Shown piece by piece: positions 41,683 through 52,465 of a stretch of 64,000 nucleotides of DNA. How positions within the stretch are numbered: position 1 is the stretch's first letter; each line of letters begins with the position of its first letter. The stretch comes from a virus. The translations under genes were made by a program, and so were the position numbers. The DNA lies in IMG/VR virus record IMGVR_UViG_3300049979_000188; one strand, 5' to 3'. The notes beneath the pieces are model-generated. The model ran no database searches. It saw nothing but the letters and a program-made list of their open reading frames with translations, and was not told the origin of the DNA.

Positions 41683-44600
41683 TTGAAAAAACGCATTGCG
41701 CACTTAGCCGATATTCACATTGCCCGCAGTCCCTTGCGGCATGCCGAGTACCAGCAGGTCTTCTCCCGAACCGCCCGCCTGCTGCAAAGCGAAGCACCGG
41801 ACGTGATTGTGTTGACCGGAGACTTGTTCAACGACTACATTGCCGCCAGTAACGAGTCGACCCAGCTGGCCGGTAATTTTTTACGCAGCCTCTCGGCCAT
41901 TGCGCCCGTGGTACTCACCCGGGGTAACCATGATTACGACAAGTTTCGGCAAAACCGCATTGACTCGGTCAAGCCCGTGGTCGACTTGCTGGCCACCGAC
42001 CAGCTGCGTTACTTTAACAAGTCCGGTTTTTACCGCGACGATAACCTTATCTGGGTTGTCTGGCACCACGGGGATGAGCTCTCGCCCTGGAACGTGGCCC
42101 TGACCGCCCGTAAACAGGGGTATCCGGCTGATTTTTACGCTGACGACATCGAGCAGCTACTCAACCAATACGGGGATTTTGATGGCGTGCGGGCCGCAGG
42201 CTACACGCTAATCGACCTCTTCCATGACCCGGTGACCGGGGCCAAAGCCAGCAACGGGGAAGTATTTCGGGACGGTGCCTATTTGCGCCAAAGCGATTTG
42301 CAGGGCGATTACGCCCTGCTGGGTGACATTCACCTGCGCCAGTTCTTTACCCGGCCGGGTCAGCATCAGCCCTTTGCCGGCTACCCTGGCTCTTTGATTC
42401 AGCTGCACTTTGGCGAGGCCGAAACCGGACACGGATACTTGCTTTGGGACATTGAGGCCGATACGGTACGGGCGGTCGATGTACCCAACGACGTGTGTTA
42501 CTATACCGTTGTGGTGGAGCCAGGCACCGAGTACGATGCCTTGAGTCTGGTCTTGCCCGAGCCGACGGCCCCGGTGCCCCACGTGCGCATTTACTGGCGG
42601 GATAATTCCCTGCAGCAGACCCAGGCCAATAAAACCAAGCTGCGAAAATACTTCCGCGAGCGCTACGCCGCCGATGTGACGTTCGACCCGCACCCCGTTG
42701 ACCAGCGGCAGCTGCAGGCCGGGCGAGTGGGTACGGACCTGGACCAGCTTGACTTGACGGATGCCGGTTTGCAGCGTACGCTAATTACGGAGTATCTGGA
42801 GAGTAATGCCATCCCCCAGGAGCAGATTGTGTCCCTGCTTGAACTCGACGATACCATTACCGAGCGGTTGCGAATTGCGGATTCAAGCGAAGACGGCAAT
42901 TTACTCAGTGGCGATAGTAACGGGGAAGTGCGTCTGCTTAATCTGCGCATTGATAATTTCCAGTCCGTGGATGAGCTCACCCTCGACTTGCAGGCCCATC
43001 CTGGTCTTTGGCAAATTACGGGGCCTAATGAAACGGGCAAAACAACGGTGCCCATGGCCCTGCTTTACCTTAAATTTGGTAATACGCTGGGCACGGTGGT
43101 ACTTAAAAATGGGGAAATTAAAACACGCCCGGAAAAAAACGGCGATAACCGCTTTATCAACAACAAGCGCGATAAGGACTACTGCCAGGTTTCGGCTGAT
43201 TTTGAGGTAGCGGGTATCCTGGTACGGGCTACCCGTCGCTCGGAGCGCAAGTGGAAGCGTACCAAAGCTGATGAGCCCCGGCAAATAAGTAAAGTCTCCA
43301 CTGATTACCGGCTTGAACTCCTAACGTCTGACTTTCAGGTTGACCAAGATGTGAGCGTGGACAAGCGCCGGCGTACGGAGCGACTGGCCACGCAGGCATT
43401 TGGTACGTTCGACGACTTTCTGCGGCAGTCTTTTTTCTCGGCCGATACGATGAGTGGGCTGCTCTCCTTGGACCGGGCCGTCTTTATTGACACCTTGCTG
43501 CGTGACCTGCGCCTGGACCAGTACGAGCGCAAACTTAAAGTTTTCCGGGAGTGGAAAACCGAAGTCGGTAAGCGTCAGACCCGGCTGGTGCTTGACCAGG
43601 CAATCGAGGAAGGGAAGCTTCGGGCTACGGAAGCCAGCTTGGTGGAAGCCCGCGCGCAGCTACTCACCTTGCAGCAGCGTCAGCTCGCCCTTACCAGTGC
43701 GCTAAGTCGGGGCCAGCAGCAGCAAGCTAGCCTACACCAACAGTTTCAGCCCATGCCGGTCGAAGTAGGTGATACGCCCGAGCAAGTACTTCGTCAGCAG
43801 GTGCACGATGCCCTTGCCAGCGTGCATGCCCACGGCACTAAGGAGCAGGACTTACTGGTGCGTTGCCAGCAATTGCCCGCCACCTACGACGAAGTGCGCT
43901 ACCAGTCCCTACGAGCTCAAGTAGATGATTCTCAGGGTTGGGTTCGGAGCCAGGAGCTCGAAATCGAGCGCTTGGGTAATCAAGTCGACGCGCACCTCAA
44001 CAGCATTGTCCACCTCAAGGGCATGCTTGCCTTGACTAAGGAGAAGGCCGATGCCGTTAAGAAACGCTACGAGCGGGACGTGCAGGCCCTGGAAGCGGAG
44101 CTGCTGCGTCAGGACCGCGAGATTAGTCAGCTCGAACAAAGCACCGTCTGTCCTACCTGCCAGCAGCCCAAGTCTGCCGCCGCCGTAGCCGCCATCGAAC
44201 AGGAAGTAAGTCGTCGCCGTACCGCTCGGGGGTTGCACGAGCAGCGGCAACGAGCGGAGCTGCTCGCCGCGCGTGACCAGGAACTCGACGGTATGCGCGA
44301 GTCTTATCGCAGCTACCAGCAGCAGCTTACGGTCCAGCAGGAGCCCAAACAGCAGCTGGTAGACCAGCAGCAGGCCTTGCGAGCCGGTATTACGGCCCGT
44401 CAGCTTGAGTACGCTGACATGGGCCAGGAATTGGCTAGTCTGGACAAAGTGCGCCTTGACGTGGAACGTCGTCGAGAACTGGAGCTAAGTGGAGCGCGCT
44501 TTCCGCTTATTCGCGAGGAGCTCGAATTGCTGGTGCGTCAGAGTCGCGAACGGTTGGCCATTTTTGAGCAAGCGGAGAAAGTTCGCAAGGATAATCAGAA

Positions 44601-45255
44601 AGTGCGTGAGCAGCTTGCCCAGCTTGCCCAGCGGCAGCAGGAGCAGCAAAGCGAGCTGCGTCAGGTAGAAACCGAGTGCATTCGCCTGGAGCAGGCCTTC
44701 ATCCCTCGCCAGGAGCAGGAGCAAACCCAGCTTACGGACCGTTTGCTTAAGTACGGTGAGCAGCAGCAGCGCGAGCACGTGTGGAGCATTTACGAAAAAT
44801 GCATGAGCCGCGAGGGCTTGCCCATGCAGCTGCTTCGCCGGGCCCTGGGTCCCATCAATGAGCAAATGGCGGAGCTGCTTGAGGGACTTTGCTTTACCAT
44901 CTACCTGGACGAGGACCTGGAGTTCCGCATGCTCGACCACCGGGTAGCGGGTGTTGACCAGCACATTCTGCAGGGCTCGGGTATGGAACGCACCTTTGCT
45001 TCCCTGGTTCTGCGCCTGGGCCTGCGCCGGCTCAATCACCGTGCCCGCTGGAATATTCTTATTATGGACGAACTGCTGGGCAAGCTCGATGCCGAGGCGA
45101 CGGTGCGTTACGCCGAGCTGCTGCGTACGGCTACCATGAGCATTGAGCACGTCTTCGTTATCGAGCACCACGGCGAAGGGATTCTACGACCGGACCACCT
45201 GCTCAAAGTGCATGCTTATAAGGGGGTGAGCAAGTACCAGCTGAGTCTCAATTAG
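41683..45255 (+). CDS. Fused SbcD(Mre11/gp47)-SbcC(Rad50/gp46) recombination nuclease-ATPase (1190 aa)
   Basis: HLADIH, GDLF, GNHD, LGDIH, YPGS; then GPNETGKT, coiled coil with CPTC hook, GSGME signature, IMDE Walker B. Confidence 0.92.
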   Translation: MKKRIAHLADIHIARSPLRHAEYQQVFSRTARLLQSEAPDVIVLTGDLFNDYIAASNESTQLAGNFLRSLSAIAPVVLTRGNHDYDKFRQNRIDSVKPVVDLLATDQLRYFNKSGFYRDDNLIWVVWHHGDELSPWNVALTARKQGYPADFYADDIEQLLNQYGDFDGVRAAGYTLIDLFHDPVTGAKASNGEVFRDGAYLRQSDLQGDYALLGDIHLRQFFTRPGQHQPFAGYPGSLIQLHFGEAETGHGYLLWDIEADTVRAVDVPNDVCYYTVVVEPGTEYDALSLVLPEPTAPVPHVRIYWRDNSLQQTQANKTKLRKYFRERYAADVTFDPHPVDQRQLQAGRVGTDLDQLDLTDAGLQRTLITEYLESNAIPQEQIVSLLELDDTITERLRIADSSEDGNLLSGDSNGEVRLLNLRIDNFQSVDELTLDLQAHPGLWQITGPNETGKTTVPMALLYLKFGNTLGTVVLKNGEIKTRPEKNGDNRFINNKRDKDYCQVSADFEVAGILVRATRRSERKWKRTKADEPRQISKVSTDYRLELLTSDFQVDQDVSVDKRRRTERLATQAFGTFDDFLRQSFFSADTMSGLLSLDRAVFIDTLLRDLRLDQYERKLKVFREWKTEVGKRQTRLVLDQAIEEGKLRATEASLVEARAQLLTLQQRQLALTSALSRGQQQQASLHQQFQPMPVEVGDTPEQVLRQQVHDALASVHAHGTKEQDLLVRCQQLPATYDEVRYQSLRAQVDDSQGWVRSQELEIERLGNQVDAHLNSIVHLKGMLALTKEKADAVKKRYERDVQALEAELLRQDREISQLEQSTVCPTCQQPKSAAAVAAIEQEVSRRRTARGLHEQRQRAELLAARDQELDGMRESYRSYQQQLTVQQEPKQQLVDQQQALRAGITARQLEYADMGQELASLDKVRLDVERRRELELSGARFPLIREELELLVRQSRERLAIFEQAEKVRKDNQKVREQLAQLAQRQQEQQSELRQVETECIRLEQAFIPRQEQEQTQLTDRLLKYGEQQQREHVWSIYEKCMSREGLPMQLLRRALGPINEQMAELLEGLCFTIYLDEDLEFRMLDHRVAGVDQHILQGSGMERTFASLVLRLGLRRLNHRARWNILIMDELLGKLDAEATVRYAELLRTATMSIEHVFVIEHHGEGILRPDHLLKVHAYKGVSKYQLSLN

Positions 45256-45305: not shown

Positions 45306-45923
45306 ATGCGAGAACGCCGCGAAATTATCAAACTGGCCGGTCAGCTGCAGCAGGGAAGCCCGCTGCAGCCTAGCGCCCTGGCCAAATTCATCGAAGACCA
45401 CCAGCTCAGCAGTGAGGAAGTAGCCATGCTTCAAGGGGAGCTTATTAGCAACATTGTCGTCTTGTTCAGTACCCAGCAAGCCACGACGGCCCTGCTGCGT
45501 CAACATAAGCCCGTAGCCGTTACTGCGCCAAGCCCCAGTGTGCCTAGCTTGGCGCAGTTACCCGACGAGTTGCTCAGCGAGGCCATTGGCCAGCCGCTCT
45601 ACCAGGCCGGTGACCCCGTGCCTTGGTACGGAACTTACCAGCGTCGACTCGGCACCGGCCTGTATGTGAAGCGTAGTGACGGCTCAGGGCCCATGGATGC
45701 GCAACTCGAAAGCCTCTACTCGTTTCCCTATGACCCGCAGGCCTACAAGCAGGCCCGGGCCGGAGGCTTCGTGCGCTACTACTACCCCAGCAAGGGCCTG
45801 GACTTGGTTCACGTAGACCAAATCGCCCTTATCGACGCCAATACCGGCTCCTTGCAGCTCAGCAATGGCAAACTTATTCCGCTTACCTACATCACGGGTA
45901 TTTTCGACAAGAACCTCTCATGA
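45306..45923 (+). CDS. Hypothetical protein (205 aa)
   Basis: ATG ORF whose stop overlaps the start of the Prs-like gene. Confidence 0.7.
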   Translation: MRERREIIKLAGQLQQGSPLQPSALAKFIEDHQLSSEEVAMLQGELISNIVVLFSTQQATTALLRQHKPVAVTAPSPSVPSLAQLPDELLSEAIGQPLYQAGDPVPWYGTYQRRLGTGLYVKRSDGSGPMDAQLESLYSFPYDPQAYKQARAGGFVRYYYPSKGLDLVHVDQIALIDANTGSLQLSNGKLIPLTYITGIFDKNLS

Positions 45924-46849
45924 GTCAACCTAAAGAACCCACGCCGCTGCTCATGCTGCTGCTCGGTACGCCTGGCTACGTAACGGAGCCTGAAACCAAA
46001 CCATACCGTATCCTGCCCCTGCGCTACCAACGCGGTAACTTTCCCGGGGGAGAAGTATTTTTTCGACTCGACCACCCCGATTACGTAACGGGTAAACCCG
46101 TACTCGTAACGGCCCGTTTGCGCAGTAGTGACGACGTAATGGCTTTGCTTATGGCCACCGATGCCCTGCGCCGGCTTTACCCGGCTAGTCTCACCCTTAA
46201 ACTCTTTTACCTGCCCTATGGGCGCCAGGACCGGGTTGCCGTGGAAGGCGAATCGCTCTCGGTTGCCGTGATGGGGGAACTGCTTAAAAACTTGCCCTAC
46301 GAAAGCATCTTCGTGCTCGAACCCCATAGCGACGGGTCGGCCATTGCCTTGGGGCCCAAGGCTACCATGCTTACCAATAACAGCGTAGGCTACGCCCAGT
46401 TCGTGCGCCACAGCCTCCTGGAGCAAGGCCTTACCCCCGATAAGGTTGTCTTGGTAAGTCCGGACGCGGGGGCCGCCAAACGCCAGGTTCGCATGAGCCA
46501 GGATTTGCAGCTCTTTGACGTAGCCGAAGGCAAAAAGCACCGCGATTTGGAAACTAACCGGTTAACGGGCTTTGGCGTTGACCGGGAAGACTTCCAGGGT
46601 AAAGTTGCCCTTATTGTCGATGACCTCTGCGACGGGGGAGGCACATTTGTGGGCCTGGCTAAGGTTTTGCGCGAACGGGGGGCTTCGGCCGTGCACCTGA
46701 TGGTCACGCACGGGCTTTTCCCCAAAGGACTCGCTATTTTTCAGGGCCTCATCGACGTGGTGTACTCCACCAACTCCTACCGTGATTTTGACGACTTAGC
46801 CCCGGTAGAGGGCGTGCGCTTTCTGGCGTACAAGCTCCAACTATTCTAA
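45920..46849 (+). CDS. PRPP-synthetase-like enzyme, likely ADPR-PP synthetase (Adps, NARP1)
   Basis: FPGGE, YLPYGRQDR, LEPHS, VSPDAGA.KR, LIVDDLCDGGGTF, VTHGLF; adjacent to a Nampt-like gene. Confidence 0.85.
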   Translation: MSQPKEPTPLLMLLLGTPGYVTEPETKPYRILPLRYQRGNFPGGEVFFRLDHPDYVTGKPVLVTARLRSSDDVMALLMATDALRRLYPASLTLKLFYLPYGRQDRVAVEGESLSVAVMGELLKNLPYESIFVLEPHSDGSAIALGPKATMLTNNSVGYAQFVRHSLLEQGLTPDKVVLVSPDAGAAKRQVRMSQDLQLFDVAEGKKHRDLETNRLTGFGVDREDFQGKVALIVDDLCDGGGTFVGLAKVLRERGASAVHLMVTHGLFPKGLAIFQGLIDVVYSTNSYRDFDDLAPVEGVRFLAYKLQLF

Positions 46850-46873
46850 TTTTTCACTTTTTCAGCCCTTACT

Positions 46874-47704
46874 ATGTGGTTAGGCTCCCTGCTTCACACC
46901 GACGTCTATAAAGTCGGCCACGAAGCCCAATACCCGGAAGACATCACCAAAATCTACTCGACGCTGGTGGCCCGGTCCGGGAAAACCTACCCGGCCTCCG
47001 TTCAATTCGGCGACAGCTTCTACTTGAAGGAATACCTGATGAACGGCATCAAGCGCGGCGACGTGCAGCAATTTATGCTGCTGGCTGACGCCATCCTGGG
47101 CCCGGGTAAAGTTAAACCCGCCGACTTCTACAAACTTCAGGAGCTAGGTTACTGGCCAGTGGAAATCAAGAGCTTACCCGAGGGCTCGCTGGTACGCACC
47201 GGGAACGTACTCACGAGCTACGAGAGCACCAACAAGGACTTGCCCTGGGTGGGTGGCTTTTTGGAAGGCCTTACCCTTAAAGTGTGGAACTCCTCGACGG
47301 TGGCCACTAATTCGTTCCGCTTGCGTAAGGTGGTGGAGCTCTTTGCCGAGCGCACTGCTGAGACAATGGACCACGTGGACTACCAGATTCACGATTTCGG
47401 CTACCGCGGCTGCTCTTCGGAGGAAACGGCCGCCATTGGCGGGGCTGCCCACTTGCTGTCTTTCCGGGGCACGGACACGATTCCCGGGGTGGCCCTGCTC
47501 GATACGTTCTACAACGTGGATAACTCGACGCCGCTCTCGGCCATCGGTAACTCCGTACCGGCTTCTGAGCACAGTGTAGCTTGCGCCTGGTCGGGCACTC
47601 AGGCTAAGTACGTAGACAGCGTGGAAGAAATCTTTGACGAAGTCACTGGTCGCTGGCTTGTGAGTCACTATCTGAAAGATGGTAAAGTCGTGTCGAACGT
47701 GTAA
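46874..47704 (+). CDS. Nampt-like enzyme (Namat), N-terminal part
   Basis: TDVYKVGH, IKSLPEG, FLEG...VWNSSTVAT, HDFGYRG, SVPASEHS; stops at 47704. Confidence 0.88.
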   Translation: MWLGSLLHTDVYKVGHEAQYPEDITKIYSTLVARSGKTYPASVQFGDSFYLKEYLMNGIKRGDVQQFMLLADAILGPGKVKPADFYKLQELGYWPVEIKSLPEGSLVRTGNVLTSYESTNKDLPWVGGFLEGLTLKVWNSSTVATNSFRLRKVVELFAERTAETMDHVDYQIHDFGYRGCSSEETAAIGGAAHLLSFRGTDTIPGVALLDTFYNVDNSTPLSAIGNSVPASEHSVACAWSGTQAKYVDSVEEIFDEVTGRWLVSHYLKDGKVVSNV

Positions 47705-48347
47705 GCAGGAAAAACCATTAACTGAGTTTTCTCGCTATGCGCAAGCTGCTGATGGCTTACGTCCTGTGTGCAAGTGTTGCATTAATGCGTACAACAGACA
47801 AAAACGTGCTGAGCACCTCCACCAATACCAAACAGGTCAACGGAAACGCTATCAACTAAATCCCCAAAAATTTCGAGCTGAGAAACTGGTTTATGAGGCC
47901 GAGCACAAAGCTGAAAAAGCAGCCTACGATAAAGTTTATCGTCAACGAAACGCTCTTAAACAGGCACAAGCTAAACGAGAGTGGACTGAACGGAATCGCA
48001 CCAATCCACTTGTAAAGCTTAAACGGAATTTACGTCGCCGATTACATCATGTACTCGCTGGCACCAATAAGGCCGCCAGCACCATGGAATTAATTGGCTG
48101 TACAATTGACGAACTACGAAGCCACCTTGAAGGGCAGTTTACCGCGCTAATGAGTTGGGATAACTACGGGCCATACGGCTGGCATGTCGACCATCGACAA
48201 CCTTGTTACACATTTGATTTAACAGACCCTGACCAACAACGCGTCTGTTTCCATTTTAGTAATTTACGACCGCTTTGGTGGTTAGAAAACGTTTCTCGGC
48301 CTCGGCCTAAACACTATGCATCAAACTCGCATCCGTCTACTCAGTGA
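47679..48347 (+). CDS. HNH homing-type endonuclease inserted in Namat
   Basis: Zn ribbon CRTC...CKCC; GCTIDELRSHLE.QF...MSWDNYG...WHVDH..P...CFHFSNLRPLW..EN. Lower GC (25/60 at 47821-80 versus 41/60 at 47401-60). Confidence 0.85.
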   Translation: MVKSCRTCKQEKPLTEFSRYAQAADGLRPVCKCCINAYNRQKRAEHLHQYQTGQRKRYQLNPQKFRAEKLVYEAEHKAEKAAYDKVYRQRNALKQAQAKREWTERNRTNPLVKLKRNLRRRLHHVLAGTNKAASTMELIGCTIDELRSHLEGQFTALMSWDNYGPYGWHVDHRQPCYTFDLTDPDQQRVCFHFSNLRPLWWLENVSRPRPKHYASNSHPSTQ

Positions 48348-49350
48348 GCGTGAAACGCTCCAGTATGGAGAGTACCGTTATTTCGAGAACATGCTTGACC
48401 TTTACCCCACCGGTATTGTTAGCGTGGTATCCGATACGTATGACCTCTGGCATGTCATAACGAATTACCTGCCGCGGCTAAAATCGCGCATTCTAGCTCG
48501 CGATGGTAAGCTTGTTCTTCGCCCTGATTCAGGGGACCCTGAGCTGATTCTGCTCGGTGACCCGAATGCGCTTGAAGGCTCACCAGCTAACCTCGGGGTA
48601 CTTGAACTACTCTGGAATGAATTCGGTGGTACCATTAATACCAAGGGCTACCGCGTACTTGACCCGCGTATCGGCGTTATCTACGGCGATGGCATCTACT
48701 ACGAGCGCCTGGTGCGCATTCTAGTGGGCATGGAACGCAAGGGCTATGCTACGGTTATCCCGTTCGGCATCGGCGGGCTGCTGCTCCAGCAGTTTAGTCG
48801 CGATACGCTCGCCTTTGCTATCAAGGCTACCTACGTGGAGGCGAATGGTGAGGGGCGTGACATCATGAAGGACCCCATTACCGACCACGCTAAAAAGTCC
48901 TTCAAAGGCCGCGTAGTCGTCACGCGTGACCCCATTACGCAAGAGTACGTAACGCGTGACCAGGTAAGTCAGGAAGAAGCGGCCGGTGGGTTGCTGCAGC
49001 TTATCTACCGCAACGGGGTGCTCTACAACAGCCCCAGCCTGGCTGAAATTCGGACCCGACTGGCCGCTGAACCCCTGCCGGCCGGCTTCGTGCCAACGAT
49101 GGAGGAGCTCTATGCCCTGGCCGACGCTACTCCGCTCTCGCGCTACCAGACAAAATCGGATACCGCGCCGCTGAGTTTTGAAACAGTTCGCAACTGGCTG
49201 GCTACGCAAGGTGCCGACTTTACGCAAGCGCAGGTAGCGGAAGTGCTGATGGCATTGGGCGTAGCTGAAACTACGACTGAGGAGGCTGATTCGGCGCTTA
49301 ACCCGGCCCCGGAAGGGAAACCGGGTTCGCAGAAAGCTCGTCGTAAGTAG
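48316..49350 (+). CDS. Nampt-like enzyme (Namat), C-terminal part
   Basis: Own ATG; YPTGIVSVVSDTYD, LRPDSGDP, IYGDGI, FGIGG, FAIKAT, KDPITD..KKS.KG. Confidence 0.88.
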   Translation: MHQTRIRLLSERETLQYGEYRYFENMLDLYPTGIVSVVSDTYDLWHVITNYLPRLKSRILARDGKLVLRPDSGDPELILLGDPNALEGSPANLGVLELLWNEFGGTINTKGYRVLDPRIGVIYGDGIYYERLVRILVGMERKGYATVIPFGIGGLLLQQFSRDTLAFAIKATYVEANGEGRDIMKDPITDHAKKSFKGRVVVTRDPITQEYVTRDQVSQEEAAGGLLQLIYRNGVLYNSPSLAEIRTRLAAEPLPAGFVPTMEELYALADATPLSRYQTKSDTAPLSFETVRNWLATQGADFTQAQVAEVLMALGVAETTTEEADSALNPAPEGKPGSQKARRK

Positions 49351-49359
49351 TACCTCATC

Positions 49360-49397
49360 ACCTACTCAGGTAGCCAAACCTGCCTGGGTAGGTTTTT
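49360..49397 (+). terminator. Intrinsic terminator after the NARP1 genes
   Basis: acctactcaggtag/ctgcctgggtaggt (two G-U) followed by tttt. Confidence 0.75.
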
Positions 49398-49408
49398 ACT
49401 TGTTCGTC

Positions 49409-49591
49409 ATGAAAAAAGATACCATTGTTTTGCCCCCCGCGCCTGTAACTTCCGCCGTTCAGTGTGACAATGCTGTTTTTACGATTCGTAACACGGGCCA
49501 TTGGGATGGACGCTACCTTATAAGCCAAGCTGTTGTGGAAGACGGCCAGCTTCTCTCCTTCCAGGCCCAGCGCTTACCTGCGCTGGTGTAA
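49409..49591 (+). CDS. Hypothetical protein (60 aa)
   Basis: ATG 49409. Confidence 0.5.
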   Translation: MKKDTIVLPPAPVTSAVQCDNAVFTIRNTGHWDGRYLISQAVVEDGQLLSFQAQRLPALV

Positions 49592-49604
49592 ATTCACCAA
49601 GCAC

Positions 49605-50054
49605 ATGGATAAGACGTTGAATGAAACCACAGCCCCCGTATTTGAGGCCCAGCCCCAGTGGATGACCTTTAATTGCCAGACGCATCGGCATACTCAAGAC
49701 CCAGCTGTGGGTTATCTGGTGGCCCGCAACGGCCATACCGACGATAAGTCACTGCGTCGCACTAAGCTTCTCTTTATCGGTTACGCCAGCCCCGGCGTTA
49801 TTACCCCGCAAAAAGTAGCTAGTTGGCTCCGCCAACTAGGGTATTGGCCCACGCACGTGCACGTAGACCTGGGCCCGTATTTTATCCCGCACTGGCCTGG
49901 TCACTATTACCAGTTTGACGCCGAAGGCTTGTTTTTAACCCACGTCAGCGGGGCTCCCATCAGTCATGTAAATGACGAACCTGTTACCGATTATCAACCC
50001 GAGGTGGACCGCAGCCAAGTGGCCCGGCTCATTAGCTTAATTCAAGCCCCATGA
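49605..50054 (+). CDS. Hypothetical protein (149 aa)
   Basis: ATG 49605; stop overlaps the next start (ATGA). Confidence 0.65.
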   Translation: MDKTLNETTAPVFEAQPQWMTFNCQTHRHTQDPAVGYLVARNGHTDDKSLRRTKLLFIGYASPGVITPQKVASWLRQLGYWPTHVHVDLGPYFIPHWPGHYYQFDAEGLFLTHVSGAPISHVNDEPVTDYQPEVDRSQVARLISLIQAP

Positions 50055-51179: not shown

Positions 51180-52465
51180 CAAGATTATGAAATAATTTTA
51201 CAGAAAAATGTTGGTTTCTGTAAAATTATGGGTATATTTGCGGTAGATGTTGAAAGCGTATCAATACAGGTTGTACCCAACCGCTGCCCAAACCGAGTTG
51301 TTGAATCAGCACATCGGCGCAGCGCGTTTTGTGTACAACCTTGCCTTGGATACCAAGCAGCAAGCCTACACTCGGTTTGGTAAAACGCTTACTTGCGTTG
51401 ACTTGATTAACCAACTTCCCGACCTCAAAACGGAGTGTCCGTGGTTAAAATTGGTCAACTCGCAATCGTTGCAAATGGCGTTGCGTAATCTGGATAATGC
51501 CTTTACCAACTTCTTCAAAGGTCGTGCGGATTATCCAAATTTCCGCAAGAAAACCAATGGCGGCTCGTTTCAAGTGCCTGCCAACGGGCAAGTAGACTTC
51601 GGCAACAGTACTATCAGTTTGCCTAAATTCAAGTCCGGTATTAAGTCGGTATTGCACAGTAGTTTTCGTGGTACGGTTAAGACCGTCACGATTTGTAGAA
51701 CCCCAACGGGCAAATTCTTCGCGTCTGTGTTGGTCGATACCAACTACCAAGCCGAAACGCTGGTAGCACTCAACCCTGAAAAGGTAGTTGGAGTAGACTT
51801 GGGTATTAAGGACTTCGCTGTGTTGAGTACGGGCGAAGCCATAGCCAATCCTAAGCACCTGCGGAAGAATCTGGCGCGGTTAAAGGTCTTACAACGTCGG
51901 GCATCTCGGAAGGTGAAACGTAGTGCCAATCGGCGCAAAGCCAACCTGAAAGTAGCGAAGCAACACGAACGGATTGCCAATTGCAGAAAGAATTTCTTGC
52001 ATCAACTCAGTAGCAAGCTCGTCAAGAACCACGACGGAATTGCTATTGAGGATTTGGCTGTCAAGAACTTACTCAAAAATCATAAATTGGCACAAGCCAT
52101 ATCGGATGTGAGTTGGGCAGAGTTTAGAAGGCAGTTGGAATACAAATGCGAATGGCAGGGCAAGCACCTGCTCGTCATTGGACGATATGAGCCTTCCACG
52201 AAGCTCTGTTCAACGTGTGGCTATACGAACCACACACTGACCTTAGCTGACCGGGAATGGAATTGTCCGTCCTGTGGTTCGCATCACGACCGCGACCATA
52301 ACGCTGCTATTAATATCAAGCAGATGGCATTGGTCAAGAATAATACAGGGGTGGAACGCCCCGGTGAGCCTGTGGAGACGCTGACATTGGTCAGGTCATT
52401 GAAGCAGGAAAAACGAGCTACTCTTGTATCGAAGCCCCTCTCCCTTTAGGGGAGGGGTTGTTCAC
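51180..52465 (+). mobile_element. Non-autonomous IS200/IS605-family (IS1341-like) element, tnpB only
   Basis: Left-end perfect 15-bp hairpin 51192-51229; right end GAAG-hairpin-TTCAC ending 52465; about 40% GC in a sampled line; no tnpA. Left boundary after TTTAG is inferred. Confidence 0.85.
51247..52449 (+). CDS. tnpB: RNA-guided endonuclease TnpB
   Basis: KAYQYRLYPT..Q (HTH), VGVDLG, IAIEDL, CSTCG..CPSCG, HDRDHNAAINI; own TATATTTG at 51233-40. Confidence 0.95.
   Translation: MLKAYQYRLYPTAAQTELLNQHIGAARFVYNLALDTKQQAYTRFGKTLTCVDLINQLPDLKTECPWLKLVNSQSLQMALRNLDNAFTNFFKGRADYPNFRKKTNGGSFQVPANGQVDFGNSTISLPKFKSGIKSVLHSSFRGTVKTVTICRTPTGKFFASVLVDTNYQAETLVALNPEKVVGVDLGIKDFAVLSTGEAIANPKHLRKNLARLKVLQRRASRKVKRSANRRKANLKVAKQHERIANCRKNFLHQLSSKLVKNHDGIAIEDLAVKNLLKNHKLAQAISDVSWAEFRRQLEYKCEWQGKHLLVIGRYEPSTKLCSTCGYTNHTLTLADREWNCPSCGSHHDRDHNAAINIKQMALVKNNTGVERPGEPVETLTLVRSLKQEKRATLVSKPLSL

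Follow-up and report, generated by a model that had tools for sequence, protein, structure and literature searches.

So far, the ribonucleotide reductase of phage Aeh1 is the only enzyme whose splitting by a free-standing homing endonuclease has been worked out. There, the split NrdA cannot be active without the tails that arose from the mobE insertion, and nrdA-b is overlapped by mobE (PMC3045599). The Aeh1 split is described as a ribonucleotide reductase of the genes-in-pieces type (Friedrich et al. 2007, in the passage citing it in PMC10448857), and a passage of a 2023 paper cites it as "at least one instance." The general claim at stake is that insertion-derived tails neutralise gene fragmentation. 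Here, we analyze a locus in a 64-kb stretch of the virus record IMGVR_UViG_3300049979_000188 (hereafter the window; the source phage is ∼200 kb, contig 202,851 bp), where an NAD+-reconstitution gene of the Nampt/Namat family lies in two pieces around a gene for an HNH endonuclease. We consider it likely, with good though not complete confidence, that a homing-endonuclease gene split this transferase gene, that the product is most likely still functional as an enzyme of two chains, with tails aiding reassembly, and that the HNH is dedicated to this site.

As in Aeh1, a free-standing HNH-family gene sits between active-site alpha/beta barrel elements of an enzyme gene, the endonuclease gene overlaps the downstream half, and the insert is deviant in GC content. 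The two systems differ in the gene that was hit, an essential replication enzyme in Aeh1 and an NAD+-reconstitution, candidate counter-defence gene in the window, and the window HNH lineage, with its zinc module and helical hairpin, is unrelated to that of Aeh1. The window locus would be a second and independent Aeh1-type genes-in-pieces system, with another enzyme and another HNH lineage. Unlike the Aeh1 case, the window-type split with its tails is found in at least nine contigs, in two deep enzyme clades and with both orientations of the endonuclease gene. These natural replicates (sense and antisense HNH, two clades, an unsplit sister) make the Aeh1 tail claim testable by comparison. They would also mean that selfish endonucleases colonise NAD+-reconstitution genes, which matter for phage escape from NAD+-depleting defences.

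Three other described systems resemble the locus in part. I-HmuI of phage SPO1 is an intron-encoded HNH endonuclease, and such enzymes, like the window HNH, interrupt a conserved enzyme gene, and do so at a site that is itself conserved; at window-type loci, in contrast, no ribozyme was found, and the ORF (open reading frame) either overlaps both halves or runs antisense. In fractured genes with split inteins (PMC2677866), an endonuclease gene likewise lies between the pieces of a phage enzyme gene, whereas the window has no split intein, its extra residues being far too few and without intein motifs. The NARP1 pathway (Adps plus Namat) of phages SPbetaL1 and Bas63 (bioRxiv 10.1101/2024.02.11.579819; PMC12774641; PMC13586617) shares with the window a PRPS-like gene immediately upstream of a Nampt-like transferase and a conserved catalytic core. 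The window differs from NARP1 in having its transferase in two pieces and a clamp that reads GGLLLQQFSRD in place of GS-aromatic-x-aromatic...TRD, and it is a member of a large "GG" sister clade in which the PRPS-like synteny is kept. Literature searches found no described split Nampt or Namat, in agreement with an earlier reading of the window made from its letters (the sequence-only reading), which knew of no described case in NARP genes.

That reading had proposed three intact ORFs in three different frames, encoding an N-terminal half (chain a), an HNH endonuclease and a C-terminal half (chain b). The ORF listing and a three-frame read reproduced its coordinates and overlaps to the base (Table 1). 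The end of the a-tail overlaps the HNH gene by 26 nt, the HNH gene overlaps the start of the b-head by 32 nt, and chain a begins 24 nt after the end of the PRPS-like gene. In-frame stops at 47670-47672 (HNH frame) and 48282-48284 (b frame) mean that the HNH and b starts cannot move upstream. The two chains jointly span the whole Nampt/Namat (NAPRTase-fold) family profile, with a complete catalytic core. Pfam NAPRTase (PF04095) is matched at positions 1-64, together with NAMPT_N, in a and at 72-231/239 in b, PHROG 448 at 16-275 in a and 262-495 of 500 in b, and NCBIfam PRK09198 at 7-251 in a and 240-463 of 465 in b. The summed PRK09198 score of the two halves (479 bits) exceeds the cut-off of 405, and each half alone falls below it.

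Table 1. Features at and around the split transferase gene (positions in the 64-kb window)
Feature	Coordinates	Strand	Content or evidence
PRPS-like gene (candidate Adps or true PRPP synthetase)	45920..46849	+	Pfam, PHROG, NCBIfam, PDB matches
Nampt/Namat-like N-half "a," whole ORF	46874-47704	+	276 aa, frame 2
a, native part (residues 1-239)	46874..47590	+	TDVYK, HDFGYRG, GTDT, PASEHS
a-tail, 37 added residues	47591..47704	+	No equivalent in unsplit enzymes (junction alignment)
HNH endonuclease gene, free-standing	47679..48347	+	222 aa, frame 0
C-half "b," whole ORF	48316-49350	+	344 aa, frame 1
b-head, added N-terminal residues MHQTRIRLL (basic) and SERETLQ	48316..48363	+	Junction alignment
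b, native part	48364..49065	+	SDTYD, RPDSG, YGDG, GIGGLLLQQFSRD at clamp-helix position
b C-terminal extension (~95 aa), clade-specific	49066..49350	+	Common only to P0122, P0123, P0124

The catalytic motifs are divided as had been claimed, with GIGG...SRD also in b. The core residues seen are the nicotinamide-stacking Tyr/Phe, the Asp, the phospho-His in xEHS and the Arg/Asp of RPDSG. With residue roles assigned from the solved SPbetaL1 Namat (PMC12774641), chain a supplies D10 and Y12 (TDVYK), F175 and R178 (HDFGYRG), D201 (GTDT), and A230 and H233, the catalytic His (PASEHS). Chain b supplies R69 and D71 (RPDSG), G124-D125-G126 (YGDG), and the clamp-helix position G153-G154...S161-R162-D163. 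In the solved Namat, the active site takes residues from both parts and from a second protomer (PMC12774641). With the catalytic residues divided between a and b, each active site would therefore need both chains and a second protomer. Alignment with uninterrupted enzymes places the break in the loop after ASEHS, as in the sequence-only reading, 5 residues past the catalytic-His motif and inside the active-site barrel. The uninterrupted sequences have ...SVPA[ST]EHSVMCSYGKDNELEAF..YPTGIVSIVSD at this point; chain a has ...SVPASEHSVACAW before its added residues, and chain b begins with ∼9 to 16 added residues and resumes with GEYRYFENMLDLYPTGIVSVVSD.

The insert is compositionally foreign. At a GC content of 0.463, positions 47620-48470 are the lowest 850-nt stretch of the window (mean, 0.566; standard deviation, 0.027), and GC at third codon positions is 0.76 in the a core, 0.54 in the a-tail, 0.39 in the HNH gene and 0.63 in the rest of b. 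The low-GC tract takes in the a-tail and the first ∼150 nt of b, to about 48470. At its N-terminus, the encoded protein carries a CxxC...CxxC zinc module; a long helical hairpin follows, and a beta-beta-alpha-metal motif, WHVDH(168-172)...SNLRPLWWLEN(194-204), lies at the C-terminus. In a 14-sequence alignment, C5, C8, C31, C34, H169, D171, H172, N195 and N204 are invariant, and the homologues keep CxxC...CxxC, WH[VI]DH and N...N. An AlphaFold2 (AF2) model (mean predicted local distance difference test [pLDDT] score, 87.5) has a zinc-ribbon-like N-terminus followed by strand 168-172, helix 184-190, strand 196-200 and helix 201-205. The His in the HxDH strand, the structural Asn, the metal-ligand Asn and the fold are thus those of a beta-beta-alpha-metal HNH enzyme.

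Database matches to the HNH vary in strength. The protein matches PHROG 1035 "endonuclease VII" (1e-18), and BFVD returned 37 matches at E≤1e-3, many of them named HNH endonuclease or HNHc. No HNH family was matched in Pfam (E≤10) or NCBIfam (E≤1), Foldseek against the PDB gave nothing significant (E>1), a PDB profile search gave nothing relevant, and the VIA wide search returned mostly coiled coils matching the helical hairpin. The nearest relevant solved structure is the PacI HNH, a weak match (Z 4.2; root-mean-square deviation, 2.9 Å; 75 aligned residues). As expected of a free-standing homing-endonuclease gene, the window HNH gene has its own ORF and a foreign composition, occurs patchily at one site, and has an uninterrupted allele in the sister enzyme P0122; no meaningful repeats flank the insert. 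In a FastTree phylogeny of 114 family members, the HNHs of all seven split loci with DNA fall into one 14-tip clade (support, 0.97), and the other ∼100 members come from unrelated contexts. On this tree, the window HNH thus belongs to a clade tied to the one site.

The same loop is split in at least eight further contigs (c291, c12, L005, L006, L097, L098, L179 and L183), a recurrence that the sequence-only reading had missed, as it had the conserved tails. On contig c291 (291,614 bp, Logan), the a-type half is 275 aa long (P0002; 62% identity) and the b-type half 398 aa (P0124; 57%); c12 (12,374 bp, Logan) carries a b-type half of 261 aa (P0131). The six others, from IMG/VR, were retrieved first by way of the HNH and later with a DNA pattern for the a-tail, and have the order a - HNH - b; in L179, the b half is cut off by the end of the locus. 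In all six, the HNH gene lies on the opposite strand, tail-to-tail with a and head-to-head with b, so that the window has the only sense HNH among the seven split loci with DNA. A PRPS-like gene lies upstream of a in most of the six. A chimeric contig is excluded because independent assemblies carry the same arrangement, and for the same reason the arrangement is not a chance one. It is tempting to read the overlaps in the window as a sign of translational coupling, as had been suggested, but coupling is not a general solution because the HNH is antisense in the six related loci.

The split is uncommon among relatives. The closest relative of the window enzyme is an uninterrupted 584-aa protein, P0122, with 66% identity to b and the same C-terminal extension. 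All 74 metagenome relatives holding both parts are continuous, as are all 60 sampled cultured-phage records. A megablast search of the locus against cultured phages found no close relative, and exact-peptide scans of IMG/VR for close relatives of b found only one distant locus, which is unsplit.

Some of these loci and relatives have features of their own. In L005 (6525-7433) and L006 (3099-4007), a LAGLIDADG-type ORF of 302 aa lies directly upstream of a on the opposite strand, a second endonuclease-like gene at the locus, with a dN/dS (ratio of nonsynonymous to synonymous substitution rates) of 0.09 between the two. L097 (3573-3941) has an extra 122-aa ORF between the antisense HNH and b, on the Namat strand and ending 4 nt into b. 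In Mycobacterium phage Gabriela (MN703406.1), an "endonuclease VII" gene abuts a Nampt-like gene with no split. The Nampt-like gene of Felix-O1-like coliphages (e.g., MN850633.1) appears as two tblastn pieces that together span ∼1746 nt within one annotated coding sequence, a pattern that points to an in-frame insertion and not to a split. In the metagenome locus L059 (871-1866), the b part falls into two same-frame tblastn pieces ∼260 nt apart, and the gap may be an in-frame insert. The C-terminal extension of b in the window (PAGFVPTMEELYALAD...) is ∼35% identical to those of P0122, P0123 and P0124 and is without a known domain.

The added residues are themselves conserved. The core of the a-tail is VDSVEEIFDEVTGRWLVS, and the a-tails of the window, c291, L097, L098/L179 and L183 share ..SVEE.F[DN]E.T[GQ].W..V[RS].., just as the b-heads of the window, c291, L097, L098 and L183 share M.{1,3}R.R.L[ST]E.E. 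The b-head of c12 (MKRVRLLEGDE) keeps only the R.RLL core and falls outside the full pattern. The enzyme cores of these tail-sharing loci are only 30 to 37% identical, and unsplit enzymes have no counterpart to the tail. Between the window and c291, the motif part of the tail is identical at 19 of 25 positions, compared to 61% identity for the core. In a six-frame translation of 1.35 Mb, the a-tail motif EE.[FY][DN]E.[TS][GQ].W and the b-head motif occurred in split loci only. Strict DNA patterns for the a-tail and b-head had no match in IMG/VR or JGI metagenomes. A relaxed a-tail pattern had seven matches in IMG/VR, four in split loci and three by chance, and, across 185,579 prokaryote genomes, 14 matches, none of them accompanied by a Namat, PRPS-like or HNH gene.

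The tails probably help to bring the chains together. When a was modelled as an AF2 monomer from an alignment that included seven tailed sequences, the tail was predicted to form a three-stranded beta-meander (strands 249-255, 260-268 and 271-275; pLDDT, 64 to 78). All seven a-tails are acidic (net charge, -2 to -7), and the first nine b-head residues are basic (+2 to +5) in seven of seven loci. Possibly, the a-tail arose as a degenerate copy of the native helix and strand at the start of b; MAFFT aligns the two, but their similarity is too weak for such a claim. That the same split recurs with add-on tails in other contigs is why we think the protein is most likely still a working enzyme, in two chains; selection, the conserved tails, the predicted tail fold and the charge complementarity give indirect support to assembly and activity of the two chains.

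In the mechanism we propose, a free-standing HNH homing-endonuclease gene would have inserted into an NAD+-reconstitution gene and turned it into two separately translated genes. The enzyme would then be made as an (a/b)2 assembly, each site combining the nicotinamide pocket and catalytic His of a with the ribose-phosphate and clamp-helix positions of b, and the acidic C-terminal beta-meander of a and the basic N-terminal head of b would aid reassembly, as experiments have shown for the Aeh1 NrdA split. The HNH would cut uninterrupted alleles in co-infecting phages and would be copied into them together with the flanking tails (co-conversion).

Could the gene instead be dead? An insertion of this kind can inactivate a gene, counter-defence genes are dispensable in many hosts, and the a-tail of L005 and L006 is nearly neutral, all of which would suit a transferase recently killed by the endonuclease insertion and left as two decaying, functionless remnants. 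Selection argues otherwise. Both halves of the window gene are intact, as had been claimed, and the dN/dS check was run on relatives, by the Nei-Gojobori method between L005 and L006: dN/dS was 0.15 for a (0.12 for its core), 0.20 for b and 0.15 for the HNH. The proportion of nonsynonymous differences (pN, 0.09 to 0.18) lies far below that of synonymous ones (pS), which implies that selection has maintained the two halves and the endonuclease since the gene was split. A ratio of 0.15 to 0.20 for the halves at a dS of ∼1 does not fit decaying remnants. Nor do nine contigs with intact halves and all catalytic-core residues at identities down to 30%, b start codons kept next to the R.R.L motif, and tails conserved across clades. 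We therefore regard a pseudogene as unlikely. It is less likely still, and in our view improbable, that one or each half took on another role, for example as a ligand-binding decoy, with no joint enzyme. Nothing speaks directly for this reading; against it, the two halves are always found together, side by side and in order, with a PRPS-like gene before them, catalytic residues are kept in both, and the solved Namat active site needs both parts plus a second protomer.

Group I introns of phages often carry HNH ORFs, and in L005, the a and b matches share a frame. Both points would suit an HNH ORF within a self-splicing group I or II intron, the spliced mRNA giving one full-length enzyme. A search with intron models had been proposed at the outset; in Rfam, 46500-49700 gave no match at E≤10, nor did either strand of four related loci at E≤1. 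Between the last homologous residue of a and the first of b, the HNH ORF leaves no more than ∼70 nt uncovered, and shuffled sequences fold as well as the 781-nt insert (47590-48370; z, -0.31). In an intron, the a-tail and b-head would be RNA, yet they show conservation at the protein level, and the HNH is antisense in the six related loci. The intron reading is therefore very improbable, and with three frames, no Rfam match and so little non-ORF sequence, the claim of a free-standing HNH gene, neither intron nor intein, was borne out. A HINT domain needs a fold of ∼130 residues or more. The extras here, only ∼37 and 9 to 16 residues, the b-head without a C-terminal His-Asn before Cys, Ser or Thr, a Cys after EHSV that unsplit enzymes also have, ORFs in three frames and the lack of any Pfam intein domain make it hardly credible that the tails are a split intein ligating the halves by protein trans-splicing, even though two halves separated by a free-standing endonuclease gene are known from metagenomic phage loci (PMC2677866).

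How the split spread can be read in part from the enzyme tree, a quick IQ-TREE reconstruction with SH-aLRT (Shimodaira-Hasegawa-like approximate likelihood ratio test) support. The "GG" and "GS" clades, named for their clamp types, separate at 100. The unsplit P0122 is sister to the window enzyme (99), and c291 falls outside both (100). Within the GS clade, L098, L005 and L006 group together with no unsplit member among them (98), and L097 sits on a long branch. The state of being split changes at least three times on this tree, as would be expected of a mobile cassette. We favor homing with co-conversion because the tails are homologous in both clades, the endonucleases form a site-specific clade, the foreign-GC tract includes the tails, and the sister allele is empty. 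Reversion by recombination with intact alleles is an alternative history. Residues 17-50 of b are 71% identical to c12 and 61% identical to P0122, a difference over too few residues for significance.

Several observations weigh against the reading of a gene split by homing and still working as a two-chain Namat-like enzyme. The synonymous divergence behind the selection estimates is close to saturation (dS, 0.9 to 1.1; pS, 0.51 to 0.59), and the pair compared are relatives rather than the window's own lineage, the comparison of the window with c291 being one of protein identity only. The a-tail of L005 and L006 has drifted and is nearly neutral (dN/dS, ∼0.8 over 31 codons), which could mean that the tails are dispensable there. 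The fold of the a-tail is a monomer prediction of moderate confidence. No HNH homologue was found for c291. A rigid tail-endonuclease-tail cassette does not explain why the HNH is sense in the window and antisense in the other six loci with DNA, the window copy being nested among the antisense copies in the HNH tree. On the side of the enzyme, the Namat clamp-helix (SCH) signature, GS-X-Phi-X-Phi-X-Phi-TRD with aromatic X residues stacking on adenine (PMC12774641), is absent from the window, where b 153-163 is Nampt-like, and no NMNAT or NadR-like gene was found in the 64-kb window by tblastn.

A broader proposal would accommodate the two orientations, and we advance it tentatively, as somewhat short of an even chance: a mobile "gene-splitting module," composed of a site-specific HNH lineage and charge-complementary tails, that invades NAD+-reconstitution genes, both Namat-signature and clamp-less, without destroying them, with the HNH flipping or being replaced between fixed tails. 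If this proposal were true, the tails would be a natural, portable tag for split-protein reassembly.

The label "Namat," given to the enzyme by the sequence-only reading, is too specific. It is not established, because the published clamp signature is absent, but b is nearer to solved Namat (best PDB matches 9W5X/9W5W, SPbetaL1 Namat, 184.8 bits) than to Nampt (about 110), and a PRPS-like gene lies upstream. That gene matches Pfam Pribosyltran_N, Pribosyltran and Pribosyl_synth, PHROG 619 (2.9e-68) and NCBIfam ribP_PPkin (123 bits; cut-off, 113), and its best PDB matches are PRPS enzymes, with no Adps chain among them. An operational criterion for Namat is an adps (PRPS-like) gene within 10 genes (PMC12774641), and the PRPS-like ORF of the window lies within that distance. 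Adps has the PRPS fold without the C-terminal alpha11-alpha12 module (PMC13586617); the window protein ends ∼20 residues before human or E. coli PRPS, past the aligned core, a comparison at the sequence level only.

The clamp types of the relatives put this in context: 31 are GG and 41 GS-aromatic, and in both clades the transferase of most relatives directly follows a PRPS-like gene. The GG relatives with enough upstream DNA mostly show this order too, so the published Namat signature does not cover all PRPS-linked transferases. In the metagenome loci L017-L053 and at 48766-48804 of the window, the clamp helix reads GG[IL]LLQ or GG-ILR with a PRPS-like gene directly upstream. Among the split loci, L005, L006, L097, L098, L183 and c12 carry the Namat signature, and c291 is GG. 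The window enzyme belongs to the Nampt/Namat family and is a candidate counter-defence enzyme; with no NMNAT found in the window, its substrate may be ADP-ribose pyrophosphate (ADPR-PP) or phosphoribosyl pyrophosphate (PRPP).

A few features of the wider window can be added. Shine-Dalgarno sequences are nearly absent before its genes, and the upstream regions are T/C/A-rich. This scarcity fits a host with Bacteroidota-like translation initiation, and the lack of such a sequence before b is uninformative because window genes almost never have one. Upstream of the PRPS-like gene, positions 41683-45255 hold a single 1190-aa ORF, an Mre11-like calcineurin-type phosphoesterase fused to a Rad50/SMC-type ATPase. 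The window has a second low-GC patch (∼0.47), and in it, 1.9 kb downstream of the split gene, lies a TnpB-like ORF of 400 aa (51247-52449; HTH_OrfB_IS605, OrfB_IS605 and Cas12f-like TNB domains), which appears to be another mobile element of the phage.

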